DNA of 64,000 nt from Akkermansiaceae bacterium UBA1315 (GCA_002307065.1 DBTN01000037.1:18230-82229); one strand, 5' to 3'. Shown: positions 1 through 64,000, counted from the first letter of the stretch. Program-made: numbers and translations. The notes: generated by a model not told the origin, from the letters alone.

Positions 1-1463
1 TGCAGCAGCTTGACTTCCACCGTCGCATCGGTCGCGGAGCCGGTTCGTGCCGTCATGAAAATATTGACCGCACATAAGATGAACCCCAGCAAATACAGCC
101 CGCCACCGAAGGAACGGAGCATGTAAGGGATGTGAATCGTTTGCAGTGTTTCGACAAATTCGTATTTCAGTGTCGCTCCGCCGGGATTGGTTTCACTGAG
201 CATCAGGCCTTGAGTGATGCCTGCGACCCACATCGCGGAGACATATAAAAGAATCCCGACAAGGCCGACCCAGAAATGCATGTTTGCCATCGCGGTTGAC
301 CAAAGCTTCGTCGACCACAAACGCGGAGCGAGCCAGTAGAACATCCCCGCAGCCATGAAGCCGTTCCAACCTAACGCACCGGAGTGGACGTGACCGATCG
401 TCCAGTCGGTATAGTGCGACAGCGCGTTGACCGAGCGGATGGAAAGCAGCGGACCTTCGAAGGTCGACATTCCGTAGAAAGTGACCGCCACGGCGAAAAA
501 TTTGATGATCGGATCGGTGCGGAGTTTATCCCAAGCCCCCCGCAGCGTCAGCAGACCATTGAGCATCCCGGCCCACGACGGAGCCCAGAGCATCAGTGAA
601 AAAAGCATGCCGAGCGTTTGCAACCAGCGCGGCAAGGACGTGTTGAGCAAGTGGTGAGGACCCGCCCAAATATAAATAAACACCAATGCCCAGAAGTGAA
701 TGATCGACAACCGGTAGGAATACACCGGCCGATCCACGGCCTTCGGCACGAAATAATACATGATCCCCAGAATCGGAGTCGTCAGGAAAAACGCGACGGC
801 ATTGTGCCCGTACCACCATTGCACCAATCCGTCCTGAACACCGCCGAAGATCGGATACGAGTGAATCAGCGAGGTCGGAATGGAGAGGTGATTGACGACA
901 TATAACAAAGCGATCGTCACAATCGTCGCGATGTAAAACCAGAGCGAAACATACAAACTCGGCTCATTCCGTTTCGCCAGCGTCCAGAAGAAGTTCACCC
1001 CAAAGATCACCCAGATCACCACGACGGCAATGTTCAGCGGCCAGATCAATTCGGCATACTCTTTGCCTCTTGTGAGGCCTGCGGGAAGCGTGATGGCCGC
1101 GCCCACGATAATCAACTGCCAGCCCCAGAAATGGATTTTCGAGAGCCAATCCGAAGCCAGCCGGACTTTACACAAACGTTGTGTCGAATAATACACTCCG
1201 GCGAAAACCATGTTTCCCACAAATGCGAAAATCACTGCATTGGTGTGCAACGGACGGATTCTGCCAAATGTGATATAGGAAAGCCCCTCGCTTTTCACCA
1301 ATCCAAAGGTGATGGCTTCGAGGAATTTTCCGTTCATTTGCCACCAGGAAAGTTGTGTGGCGGCAAGAACCCCGACCAACATTCCGACAATGCCCCAGAA
1401 AATCGAGGCGGTCATGAAACGGCGGACGGTGCGATCGTCGTAGGTGATGGTAGCGGTGGACAT
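1..1463 (-). CDS. ccoN: cbb3-type cytochrome c oxidase subunit I (runs off the window start; possibly a CcoN-CcoO fusion)
   Basis: Manual translation from ATG at 1463: MSTATITYDD...GRIRPLHTNAVIFAF...QWWYGHNAVAFFLT...WAGPHHLL...WTIGHVHSG, the canonical CcoN heme/Cu ligand motifs. The frame stays open to position 3. Confidence 0.95.
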   Translation of the reverse strand, partial: MSTATITYDDRTVRRFMTASIFWGIVGMLVGVLAATQLSWWQMNGKFLEAITFGLVKSEGLSYITFGRIRPLHTNAVIFAFVGNMVFAGVYYSTQRLCKVRLASDWLSKIHFWGWQLIIVGAAITLPAGLTRGKEYAELIWPLNIAVVVIWVIFGVNFFWTLAKRNEPSLYVSLWFYIATIVTIALLYVVNHLSIPTSLIHSYPIFGGVQDGLVQWWYGHNAVAFFLTTPILGIMYYFVPKAVDRPVYSYRLSIIHFWALVFIYIWAGPHHLLNTSLPRWLQTLGMLFSLMLWAPSWAGMLNGLLTLRGAWDKLRTDPIIKFFAVAVTFYGMSTFEGPLLSIRSVNALSHYTDWTIGHVHSGALGWNGFMAAGMFYWLAPRLWSTKLWSTAMANMHFWVGLVGILLYVSAMWVAGITQGLMLSETNPGGATLKYEFVETLQTIHIPYMLRSFGGGLYLLGFILCAVNIFMTARTGSATDATVEVKLL

Positions 1464-1472
1464 GGCGGAGAG

Positions 1473-1634
1473 TTAGAGGCGGCCGACCGGTTTGGTCGGC
1501 GGTGTGTCGAGCGGCAAAAGAGAGTCGCGCTCAAAGCTCGACCGTTTCGAACGACGGGCTTCCGCCGCGAAACAGACGACAAAAATTCCGGCCAGGCAGG
1601 AGCTGACAAGAATGGTGATGGCGAGCACGTTCAC
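1473..1634 (-). CDS. ccoS: CcoS-like small membrane protein (cbb3 oxidase maturation), 53 aa
   Basis: Manual translation, GTG start: MNVLAITILVSSCLAGIFVVCFAAEARRSKRSSFERDSLLPLDTPPTKPVGRL. One TM helix followed by a DSLLPL tail, directly upstream of ccoN. Confidence 0.65.
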   Translation of the reverse strand: MNVLAITILVSSCLAGIFVVCFAAEARRSKRSSFERDSLLPLDTPPTKPVGRL

Positions 1635-1712
1635 GCCGGTATCCAATCACGCCCGACCGGATTCCGCCCCGCATGGGCTCTCAAAGACTGTGCGGATCCT
1701 CCGCGAAACCAG

Positions 1713-62360: not shown

Positions 62361-62408
62361 AGGGAGGGGGTAAAACGGATCACCGAACGTCGGCGTTTCC
62401 GTGGGAAA

Positions 62409-62477
62409 TCAGGCACATCGACAGAATCCAGCCATCATGGCGGATCCGGTTCGAAAGATGGCACTGAAAGCTTTCAT
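62409..62477 (-). CDS. Putative 22-aa leader peptide MKAFSAIFRTGSAMMAGFCRCA
   Basis: Manual translation. Met-Met and Cys-x-Cys cluster near the stop; lies between a TTGACG -35-like box and the terminator. Confidence 0.55.
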   Translation of the reverse strand: MKAFSAIFRTGSAMMAGFCRCA

Positions 62478-62702
62478 GAAGAAAAATTGAAACCGCGCCC
62501 AGCTAACCGGTCGCTTGTTGAGGGAAGAAAACCGCTCAAAGGAACCATCGTCAAGAAATAAATTATCGAATTACTCATTTTAGTAATGTTTGTGTTATGC
62601 GGCGAGTTTCATTTGAGATCCGGTCAGAAGAAAAAAGGTCCGCCTTTCCAATCGGCCGCTGAGAGCTTGCGTGGGCGGGAGGTGTGCGCCATTCTCGCGG
62701 TT

Positions 62703-64000
62703 GTGAGAAAATGGCTGATCGGATTTTGCGCGTTGGCGCTGGCAGGAATGCCGGAGCGTTCGCACGCCGATGAACCGGCAGCGGAAACCCCGGGCGCCTC
62801 TGCGGCGAAAGTCGTCGTCATTCCGATCCGCGAACAAATCGCCAAACCCGAGCTCTACATTCTAAGGCGTGGCCTCAAAACGGCGATCGACCAACAGGTC
62901 GACACCATCGTCCTCGACATCAACACGCCGGGCGGACGAGTCGACGTGACGTTCGAAATTCTCAAAGCCCTGCAGAAATTTCCCGGAAAAACCATCGCCT
63001 ATGTGAACAGCGAAGCGATCTCCGCCGGTGCGCTGATTTCCGCCGGAACCGATGAAATCTATTTCGCGCCCGACGGCGTGATCGGGGCCGCAGCACCGGT
63101 CAATGGCGACGGCACGGACATCGAGGACACGATGAAATCCAAAGTCCTGAGCTATTTGAAAGCTCGCGTCCGCACCGTGACCGAGGACAAGGGCCATCGC
63201 AGTGAAGTCATTTCCGCGATGATCGATGCGGACTACGAATTAAAAATCGGCGACGAAATCATCAAGCCAAAGGGCGAATTGCTGTCGCTCACCGCCCGCG
63301 AAGCGGTGAAAGAATACGGCAATCCTGCCAAGCCCCTGTTGGGTGCCGGGATCGCGGAAAATATTGATGCCTTATTGGACCAACTTCACGGCGTGGGAAA
63401 TTATTCTGTGGAGCGGCTGGAAATCACCTGGTCGGAAAAAACCGCGCAGTATCTGACCAGTCTGGCTCCGATCCTGATGGCGGCAGGAATGCTTTTGCTG
63501 TTCATCGAGTTCAAAACCCCCGGCTTCGGGTTTTTCGGAATCGGCGGCGGTGCCTTGCTGGCCATCGTGTTCTTCGGGCATTTCGTCGCGGGTCTGTCCG
63601 GACATGAACCGGCGCTCTTTTTCGCGCTGGGCGTGGCGTTGGTCGTCGTCGAAATTTTCTTTTTCCCCGGCAGCGTCGCATTCGGTCTCGCGGGTGCCGC
63701 GCTCATGTTGGGCTCGCTGGTCTGGTCCATGGCCGATCTTTGGCCGAGCGAGCCGATCGTTTTTTCCGGAGAAATTTTTGTCGGCCCCTTGGTCAGCGTA
63801 TTGACCGGCGTGCTTTTGGCGGTCGTGGTTTTCTTGCTGATCATGAGGTTTTTACCCCATGGCGGACTTTGGGGAAAAATGGTGCTCGATGCTGCCGTCG
63901 GCGGAGAACCGGTCAATCATCGCCCGCTGGGAAATGAAGCCGGAACGTTGATCGGAAAAACCGGCCTGGCCGTCACCGCTCTGTTCCCAAGCGGCCAAGT
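62703..64000 (+). CDS. nfeD: NfeD family membrane-bound serine protease (ClpP class), partial at the window end
   Basis: Manual translation: VVVIPIREQI, LDINTPGGRVD, AISAGALI, IGAAAP and EFKTPGFG motifs. Confidence 0.9.
   Translation, partial: MRKWLIGFCALALAGMPERSHADEPAAETPGASAAKVVVIPIREQIAKPELYILRRGLKTAIDQQVDTIVLDINTPGGRVDVTFEILKALQKFPGKTIAYVNSEAISAGALISAGTDEIYFAPDGVIGAAAPVNGDGTDIEDTMKSKVLSYLKARVRTVTEDKGHRSEVISAMIDADYELKIGDEIIKPKGELLSLTAREAVKEYGNPAKPLLGAGIAENIDALLDQLHGVGNYSVERLEITWSEKTAQYLTSLAPILMAAGMLLLFIEFKTPGFGFFGIGGGALLAIVFFGHFVAGLSGHEPALFFALGVALVVVEIFFFPGSVAFGLAGAALMLGSLVWSMADLWPSEPIVFSGEIFVGPLVSVLTGVLLAVVVFLLIMRFLPHGGLWGKMVLDAAVGGEPVNHRPLGNEAGTLIGKTGLAVTALFPSGQ

Follow-up and report, generated by a model that had tools for sequence, protein, structure and literature searches.

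A genome-wide palindrome of HIP type, ACCGGT, in Luteolibacter (Verrucomicrobiota)

Introduction

Can a six-letter palindrome that recurs throughout a stretch of verrucomicrobial DNA be regarded as a highly iterated palindrome (HIP), and if so, how did its copies arise and what could be favouring them? The stretch, hereafter the window, comprises 64,000 nucleotides of Akkermansiaceae bacterium UBA1315 (G000:C1:18230-82229, where G000 denotes the assembly of this genome and C1 the contig), and the palindrome is ACCGGT. A preliminary description of the window proposed that this word is HIP-like, that it marks native versus foreign DNA, and that it belongs to a system built on an AgeI-type site and maintained by methylation-directed repair, recombination, uptake or chromosome organisation. 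Cyanobacterial HIPs have been on record since 1995. What causes them and what they do is still debated, the proposals being repair bias, chromosome structure and a methylation-dependent transformation signal. Since the cyanobacterial trait is ancient and nearly phylum-wide, comparison there cannot separate cause from consequence. ACCGGT, present in two sister lineages amid about 200 sequenced congeners at baseline, offers something close to an ideal natural experiment: whichever gene or regulatory change is the cause, it must be one of the few differences that set the clade apart from its relatives.

Abundance and definition of the word

The host is a freshwater-type Luteolibacter (Akkermansiaceae, Verrucomicrobiales, Verrucomicrobiota), whose assembly comprises 3.09 Mb in 50 contigs of up to 218 kb, with a GC content of 55% and a completeness of 92.7%. 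The window harbors 146 ACCGGT (2.3/kb), against 12.9 +/- 3.4 expected and a maximum of 20 in dinucleotide-preserving shuffles. Genome-wide there are 5,942 copies, one per 520 bp, and the word ranks first of all 4,096 hexamers. Markov models yield observed/expected (O/E) ratios of 9.1 (order 1), 4.2 (order 2), 3.1 (order 3) and 1.57 (order 4), the last being a lower bound, because that model conditions on ACCGG and CCGGT, pentamers which are themselves inflated by ACCGGT. The enrichment does not extend to other CCGG-containing hexamers, a possibility that the preliminary description had raised against its own proposal: the remaining 15 NCCGGN words show order-1 ratios of 0.52-1.66. Compared with 1.78 Mb of congener DNA, ACCGGT is 7.4 times the genus baseline and the top hexamer (log2 ratio 2.89), and directly below it rank only words that overlap it. 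All contigs longer than 10 kb carry between 1.3 and 2.5 ACCGGT/kb, and the trait is common to all 50 contigs.

Concerning the context of the sites, an A is found at -1 in 46% and at -2 in 32% of the copies, mirrored on the 3' side, the preference being soft and each side independent. Beyond +/-2 the flanks hold no information; hence ACCGGT is not a repeat element. The soft extended preference can be written as aA-ACCGGT-Tt, and the ACCGGT of relatives instead shows a C at -1 (46%). Longer words were considered as the core, yet AACCGGTT and AAACCGGT are not above the 6-/7-mer expectation, which leaves the hexamer as the core and the soft flanks as independent additions. Seen over the whole genome, ACCGGT is a genuine HIP-type word, and its signal is stronger than the preliminary description had it.

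Action at the DNA level

Thr is preferentially encoded by ACC, and half of the coding copies are read as ACC-GGT (Thr-Gly), which favours the view that there is no special force at all and that the word is a by-product of codon, codon-pair or amino-acid usage, of base composition, of a dispersed repeat, or of faulty assembly or binning. Codon usage is answered by the density, which on our own, crude gene calls for G000 (2,373 genes, 82% coding) is equivalent in coding (1.94/kb) and non-coding DNA (1.73/kb), and by shuffling. Coding DNA contains 4,891 ACCGGT, whereas shuffling synonymous codons within genes leaves 1,298 and shuffling codon order 766. Over the three frames the observed counts are 2,437/1,051/1,403, against 619/237/441 for the synonymous and 398/138/230 for the codon-order shuffle, so that every frame stands 3-4 times above the synonymous expectation. 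The word therefore does occur in all reading frames and between genes, as was claimed from the window alone, and its enrichment survives the control for codon-pair usage that could have explained it away.

The same picture emerges from the degree to which synonymous opportunities are filled. ACC-GGT spells 46.5% of the Thr-Gly dipeptides in G000, against 11% expected from codon usage, and ACCGGT occupies 43.9% of the X-Pro-Val and 37.4% of the [YHND]-Arg-[FLSYCW] positions; in three congeners these measures amount to 2-15%, and relatives with similar codon usage spell 10-15% of Thr-Gly as ACC-GGT. The dipeptides themselves are affected, with an O/E for Thr-Gly of 1.45 in G000 compared with 1.02 for Gly-Thr and 1.04-1.28 for Thr-Gly in relatives, and one for Pro-Val of 1.35 versus about 1.0. 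A codon or dipeptide artefact is thus ruled out by the shuffles, the non-coding density and the comparison with relatives: ACCGGT acts at the DNA level and has bent protein sequence.

As for a dispersed repeat or a binning error, the flanks empty past +/-2 and the occurrence of the trait on all 50 contigs speak against them, as does a sister lineage from a separate metagenome, also enriched (see below). Logan assemblies of two further runs, SRR5325161 (L164) and SRR404117 (L165), match G000 at 100% identity over 20.8 and 13.7 kb, respectively, the former stretch base for base. These independent identical assemblies rule out an assembly artefact. All in all, we regard the absence of any special force as hardly credible. 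Both stretches show no polymorphism relative to G000, and it should be noted that the recurrence of the same strain in two independent public runs is more in keeping with a culture, an enrichment or a co-culture than with a diverse natural population.

Occurrence among relatives

The word was followed through about 850 Verrucomicrobiota genomes, about 210 congeners among them, and nothing similar to the G000 enrichment was found. There is no enrichment in 24 congeners and 16 genomes of the same order, nor in the 5 congeners that a dehydratase paralogue in common with G000 (see below) singles out as nearest, and the 208 congeners compared stand at baseline. Relative to the control word TGGCCA, the highest ratio among 150 congeners is about 1.6, versus 8.0 in G000. 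In 400 genomes across the phylum the next-highest density is about 0.86/kb, and the high ACCGGT/TGGCCA ratios of some families arise because the control word is avoided there. Eighty named loci, adding up to 1.28 Mb, average 0.26 ACCGGT/kb.

A second enriched lineage emerged from a protein search with the solitary methyltransferase of G000 that is described below. Its orthologue on the 395-kb contig Ga0500114_000107 of JGI metagenome sample 3300050314 is 84% identical, above the 70-77% of the orthologues from species representatives. The 20.8 kb of this sister contig around the gene are fully syntenic with G000:C27 at 83-85% nucleotide identity and contain 77 ACCGGT (3.70/kb, O/E 17), compared with 47 in the matching G000 stretch. 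The specificity is shared, since the flanks of the sister contig show the same preference, and more strongly (A at -1 55%, A at -2 42%). The three lineages whose methyltransferase is 76-77% identical carry only 0.14-0.24 ACCGGT/kb. Given an enriched sister contig and next lineages at this low level, the comparison places the origin of the trait on the stem of a small clade; as judged from these genomes, the clade is young and small and comprises at least two lineages, a restriction that had escaped the preliminary description. The sister lineage is represented here by about 21 kb of compared DNA, and the trait lineage otherwise by one incomplete metagenome-assembled genome.

Origin and maintenance of the sites

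Relatives were compared at the codon level, because GTDB genomes align with G000 in few collinear blocks and at about 75% nucleotide identity, too little for a synteny-based analysis; such comparisons also lack phylogenetic independence. When 108 G000 genes were aligned by codon with congener fragments, the relative also had ACCGGT in 16 of 371 site-by-relative comparisons (4%). Sixteen genes have at least five relatives each; of the 33 sites in them, 32 depart from the consensus of the genus, and for 21 of these (64% of sites) a single base makes the difference. The sites have thus originated in place by substitution. The changes that make them affect all six positions and include transitions as well as transversions, among them 15 C->T at position 6, 8 C->G at position 5, 6 G->A at position 1 and 4 G->C at position 2.

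Protein constraint filters these changes. Where 80% or more of the relatives agree on a residue, G000 departs from it in 6 of 73 cases under sites, versus 11.7% elsewhere, while sites in frame 2 coincide with amino-acid differences in 72% of comparisons, versus a baseline of 47%. By these alignments, ACCGGT is written where the protein tolerates it, and sometimes at the cost of a replacement.

Once present, copies are retained. ACCGGT found in relatives is kept in G000 at 42%, compared with 13-22% for six control hexamers. Conservation of site positions in related DNA had been suggested as a check, and the sister contig provides it: 35 of 47 G000 sites (75%) recur at the same position, versus 36% for all hexamers, with a nucleotide identity of 0.90 inside sites and 0.83 outside. 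Wherever the shared sites could be polarised, they are absent from the outgroups (11/11). Taken with the DNA-level action, the occurrence in all frames and between genes and the bending of proteins, this conservation between sister lineages bears out the HIP-like behaviour first proposed for the window.

In E. coli, very-short-patch repair is established as the source of the CCWGG excess, and Elhai 2015 (PMC4390886) adapted this model to HIP1, a HIP of cyanobacteria. Under it, ACCGGT would be C5-methylated, a Vsr-type enzyme would convert T:G to C:G, and the deamination products would be depleted. One-off neighbours of ACCGGT are however not depleted, whether judged by the Markov models or by the genus; ACTGGT/ACCAGT and ATCGGT/ACCGAT, which deamination would produce, show O/E ratios of 1.05-1.7 and log2 ratios to the genus of +0.20 and +0.55, respectively. 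Transversions such as C->G at position 5 and G->C at position 2 take part, as do all six positions. Moreover, in G000, at its 92.7% completeness, there is no match for a C5-cytosine methyltransferase (PF00145), for Vsr (PF03852) or for the Dam family (PF02086). With neither enzymes, nor spectrum, nor depleted neighbours in its support, the classical methylation and very-short-patch route is rejected, and with it the methylation-directed repair of Dcm/Vsr type that the preliminary description had listed; we consider it very improbable.

Native and imported DNA

Along the genome, ACCGGT spacing is near exponential (coefficient of variation 1.14), with a deficit below 10 bp. Gaps of more than 3 kb number 44 in G000, against about 17 expected, and among the 50 longest many combine a low GC content with an unusual tetranucleotide composition and lie over defence loci. 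The following systems lie in ACCGGT-poor gaps:

C39:22-34 kb, Type I system
C49:28-34 kb, Type III system
C50:28-40 kb, MmeI-type enzyme and large helicase
C50:93-97 kb, island with TIR-STING, mCpol and Cap15

Of 5-kb windows, those of typical composition contain 2.0 ACCGGT/kb and the most atypical 5% contain 0.6-0.7/kb, whereas the control TGGCCA remains flat. This drop, together with the gaps over defence islands, indicates that ACCGGT marks native versus imported DNA; foreign DNA lacks it. The claim that the word separates the two is hence upheld at the genome scale, the gaps lying over restriction-modification islands and those of the cyclic-oligonucleotide-based antiphage signalling system.

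In the window itself the features of interest are:

1..64000, no strand, 146 dispersed ACCGGT copies, the window's share of the 5,942 genome-wide (146 vs 12.9 expected)
4202..5887, minus strand, paralogue of the IlvD/Edd dehydratase family with 6 ACCGGT, used to find the nearest relatives
15479..16944, no strand, ACCGGT-free, AT-rich (GC 0.42), Rhs toxin tip and immunity gene, foreign-like
20140..21885, no strand, ACCGGT-free stretch inside a 2,827-aa Rhs gene (GC 0.50), foreign-looking
30701..34664, no strand, longest ACCGGT-free gap of the window, 3,964 bp, GC 0.54, tetranucleotide distance 0.18
44100..51200, no strand, dense stretch with 21 ACCGGT in all three frames, oligopeptide ABC-transporter operon

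The copies cited at 1772, 1800, 2001, 4271, 4290, 26407, 61661 and 62506 are all correct, and where about 20 had been estimated by eye in 44.1-51.2 kb, 21 were counted; the operon there encodes two ATPases, one solute-binding protein and two permeases. No ACCGGT was found in 31042-34145, 15479-16944 or 20140-21885, exactly as reported, the first of these lying within the gap 30701-34664. Reading these gaps as foreign is appropriate for the two Rhs stretches (GC 0.42 and 0.50) and does not extend to 30701-34664, which contains a thioredoxin-reductase-like gene and small open reading frames (ORFs), has a normal composition and may be due to chance. The dehydratase at 4202-5887 is a second paralogue that occurs, at 73-91% identity, in only some twelve of 209 congeners, whereas identity to the universal copy is 45%.

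Palindromy with a soft extended consensus is what a dimeric binder would prefer, and all native DNA is covered uniformly, so the sites could be a binding array for an abundant nucleoid-associated or chromosome-organising dimeric protein serving compaction, segregation or self-marking, a role of the sort argued for HIP1 by Xu, Lawrence and Durand 2018 (PMC5861425). The arrangement of the sites fits such an array poorly. Besides the near-exponential spacing, the genome-wide distances between pairs of sites have no period other than the 3 bp of coding DNA; in particular, helical phasing (10-11-bp periodicity) is absent from them. Density is flat around gene starts and ends except for a small rise within the first 30 nt after stop codons, and no candidate protein was found. 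A regulatory or phased-array reading is thereby discarded, and we doubt the more general binding array as well, judging it improbable. The rise after stop codons amounts to 3.4/kb compared with about 2.0 elsewhere, a possible cause being words that start at the last A of TAA or TGA.

Regarding close pairs, 12 bp is the commonest spacing under 20 bp genome-wide (23 pairs), and three intergenic copies lie exactly 12 bp apart at L018:1514-1543 (G000:C50:93513-93542). The locus L018 (G000:C50:92000-101425) encodes TIR-STING, mCpol (minimal CRISPR polymerase), a Cap15-like effector and a restriction-modification pair of PstI/BsuBI type, and is almost without ACCGGT between 1.6 and 9.2 kb. A further motif-poor island, L019 (G000:C50:22000-34000), contains a Type IIG enzyme of the MmeI family (933 aa, all five MmeI domains) and, after it, an ORF exceeding 1,379 aa whose domains are Sacsin-like and of the AAA_11/UvrD helicase type.

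Candidate enzymes and competence genes

The two Type I systems, the Type III system and the MmeI-type and PstI/BsuBI-type enzymes were considered as the cause and set aside, their target types being unsuitable. All restriction-modification enzymes of G000 but one Type I system sit in motif-poor islands, a location which identifies them as recent arrivals.

A solitary 276-aa beta-class methyltransferase (G000:C27:58691-59518) qualifies better. Its catalytic motif is TSPPYNLG, SPPY being typical of N4-cytosine methyltransferases, and it scores 252 bits against the PADLOC Type II methyltransferase model. It lies in a core neighbourhood of parA, mreBCD, PBP2, RNase G (rng) and pyruvate kinase (pyk), with dnaG further on, and evolves under purifying selection between the two trait lineages (dN/dS 0.058). 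No nuclease was found among its neighbours, no search with a dedicated AgeI nuclease model having been made. An AgeI-type restriction-modification system would avoid its site; here the site is enriched instead and the methyltransferase is solitary.

Two small genes next to the methyltransferase were also considered. The first, between pyk and the methyltransferase (L164:9454-9906), encodes a 150-aa DUF883/apolipoprotein-like protein with a C-terminal glycine zipper and is found at this locus only in the two ACCGGT-rich lineages. In most relatives examined pyk and the methyltransferase overlap or lie within about 110 bp, the distance being 377 bp in L011 and 1,018 bp in L008. Although clade-specific at the locus, this gene was rejected as a cause, as its function gives no obvious link. 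The second encodes a 108-aa acidic protein without any family match (L164:10820-11146, minus strand, equal to G000:C27:59513-59836), and is convergent with the methyltransferase, with a 12-bp overlap at the 3' end of the latter. Of 208 congeners, only 6 have a homologue (45-55% identity); in at least three of these, the non-enriched G173, G179 and G127, it again adjoins the methyltransferase, and the gene was likewise rejected.

Competence genes bear on another explanation, namely that ACCGGT is purely a DNA-uptake word, favoured by a surface or periplasmic competence receptor and driven by uptake and recombination with no role for methylation. The signature is that of the uptake signal sequences (USS) and DNA uptake sequences (DUS): about 1-2 sites/kb, point mutations in all frames at tolerant positions, a soft flank preference and absence from foreign islands. 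ComEC is encoded in G000, and HIP1 itself was recently proposed as an uptake signal (PMC13756078). Known uptake words are however asymmetric and 9-12 bases long, and a 6-bp palindrome discriminates poorly. ComEC is also found in nearly all non-enriched relatives (28 of 30 relatives examined), and the small ComEA-like HHH_3 protein of many congeners (ORFs of about 330-380 aa) was not found in the incomplete G000, where the only match is Tex-like and of ~800 aa. With ComEC near-universal in the genus and the ComEA-like protein not found in G000, competence genes do not qualify as the differential factor; no clade-specific competence gene was found. We therefore hold uptake alone to be an unlikely explanation.

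Proposed mechanism

In the explanation that we favour, a sequence-specific directional force acting on DNA would have begun to favour ACCGGT alleles on the stem of the small Luteolibacter clade formed by G000 and the organism of Ga0500114_000107. Point mutations of any type that complete the word would have been fixed preferentially and existing copies kept, wherever the protein tolerates. The word would in this way have come to fill the 37-47% of synonymous opportunities seen in G000, and more in the sister lineage, with newly imported DNA starting without ACCGGT. We infer that a symmetric (dimeric) protein may read the palindrome and either bias recombination or repair or make word-bearing DNA a better recombination substrate, as recently reported for methylated HIP1 when cyanobacteria are transformed. 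A mark may come from the conserved orphan SPPY methyltransferase, in which case the novelty of the clade would be the reading protein or the regulation of the enzyme, not the enzyme. Taken as a whole, i.e. a directional force for ACCGGT, exerted by a dimeric reader that biases recombination or repair and possibly guided by a methyl mark, this explanation has in our view a roughly even chance of being right.

Several points weigh against it. Neither a protein that reads ACCGGT nor an ACCGGT-specific methyltransferase was identified in G000, which is 92.7% complete, so that the causal gene may be missing from it. Orthologues of the SPPY methyltransferase occur in most of the genus and order, with 70-77% identity in non-enriched congeners. 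Within the trait clade, 7 of 181 conserved columns of the enzyme are shared-derived, mostly in the C-terminal S-adenosylmethionine-binding part, and the central, presumably DNA-contacting region is unchanged. The 75% sharing of positions with the sister contig could partly reflect parallel filling of the same opportunities, both lineages being highly saturated. Finally, either selection for a function or a neutral molecular drive would fit the data.

As the SPPY enzyme occurs in about 200 non-enriched congeners, its presence alone cannot explain the trait; the ACCGGT-specific, AgeI-type methyltransferase expected at the outset was not identified, the sole plausible orphan being this widespread one. 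A switch of specificity was also considered and set aside: the shared-derived changes are few and outside the central region, and give no evidence of a changed target. The G000 enzyme is the most divergent orthologue, with 14 unique changes at conserved columns, compared with 16-17 in G003 and G020. Since a target change is unsupported, something else must be new in the clade if this enzyme supplies the mark.

A more specific version of the favoured explanation would make ACCGGT a newborn HIP, in which the force arose once, on a short Luteolibacter branch, through a changed use of the conserved orphan N4-cytosine methyltransferase. This might have come about by a clade-specific gene insertion that uncoupled the methyltransferase from pyruvate kinase or, alternatively, by the gain of a protein that reads N4-methylcytosine (m4C) in ACCGGT and biases recombination or repair. 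We consider this version tentative and rather unlikely. If it were true, ACCGGT would be the first HIP based on m4C, and the cause of HIPs, which in cyanobacteria has been unknown for 30 years, could be found by comparing gene content and regulation of two lineages with about 200 congeners.

Comparison with known systems

The closest parallel is HIP1 (GCGATCGC) with the alternate HIPs of cyanobacteria. ACCGGT is likewise a short, GC-rich, perfect palindrome and the most over-used word of its genome, occurs about once per 300-500 bp in G000 and its sister, in all frames and between genes, and is unexplained by codon usage; its positions are conserved in related DNA above background and it is rare in horizontally acquired DNA. 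Unlike HIP1, it has six letters instead of eight, is an AgeI site, belongs to Verrucomicrobiota and is enriched 9-17-fold rather than 15-300-fold. HIP1 is phylum-wide and ancient, whereas ACCGGT is found in only two lineages, sisters of each other, of a genus that counts more than 200 species. Furthermore, no methyltransferase of C5 or Dam type was found for ACCGGT, only the N4-cytosine-type orphan common to non-enriched relatives. It also differs from the palindromes CGGCCG, ACGGCCGT, TATCATGATA and GCTTGGCCAAGC, all of which except CGGCCG are longer.

The DUS of Neisseriaceae and the USS of Pasteurellaceae are alike in density (about 1/kb), lineage-specific "dialects", accumulation by point mutation, soft flanks and scarcity in foreign islands, but they are asymmetric 9-12-mers with a known or presumed competence receptor, and ACCGGT is a 6-bp palindrome with AACCGGTT not above the 7-mer expectation. 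The CCWGG excess of enterobacteria is mild (<2-fold) and comes with C5 methylation, Vsr and depleted T:G neighbours, none of which is seen for ACCGGT.

In the literature, HIP abundance was tied to cognate methyltransferases, with a repair bias proposed, and ACCGGT was named only as a sub-site of the RCCGGY enzyme DmtD (Elhai 2015, PMC4390886). Conservation of HIP1 was reported by Xu, Lawrence and Durand 2018 (PMC5861425), who argued for selection and a role in chromosome structure and described a quasi-periodicity at 10-90 kb. More recently, methylated HIP1 was reported to raise natural transformation up to 100-fold (bioRxiv 10.1101/2024.09.10.611283), and HIP1 abundance to co-vary with type IV pilus and competence genes and not significantly with methyltransferases (PMC13756078). 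Full-text searches found neither ACCGGT as an iterated palindrome nor any HIP in Verrucomicrobia, which agrees with the statement in the preliminary description that none was known there. ACCGGT is thus a HIP-type word with a new sequence, new for the phylum in print. In practical terms, its density offers a sensitive means of telling native from imported DNA in this organism, and a binning signature for the clade in metagenomes.

Viral contigs and avoided sites

Phages that mirror the host word were sought by scanning viral contigs for three sites within 90 bp. Densities of up to 10 sites/kb were obtained, but they were rejected as protein Thr-Gly repeats, the sites lying at multiples of 3, 9 or 18 nt in giant repetitive ORFs. 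The IMG/VR contig L288 (ORF of 2,118 aa), and also L231, L237 and L267, contain such in-frame collagen- or fibre-like Thr-Gly repeats, which are unrelated to the genome-wide ACCGGT.

Other palindromes are strongly under-represented in G000, namely CAGCTG (PvuII site, O/E 0.18-0.36), CTCGAG (XhoI site, 0.26-0.30), CATATG, GGCGCC and CCGCGG, and in comparison with congeners the most depleted hexamers are CAGCTG, CTCGAG and TGTACA. The pattern suggests that restriction systems with such targets act on the genome or have done so in the past.

Elsewhere in the phylum ACCGGT itself can be extremely rare. G377, from another family, contains 8 ACCGGT in 4.9 Mb, against 1,843 TGGCCA, as expected under an AgeI-type restriction system, and counts are very small in G239, G473 and G552 as well. 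In the Verrucomicrobiota families f28 (genus g80) and f35, many genomes are nearly devoid of the control word TGGCCA, the MscI/BalI site, with e.g. 27-130 copies per 2.5-3.5 Mb, which suggests widespread restriction avoidance of that site.

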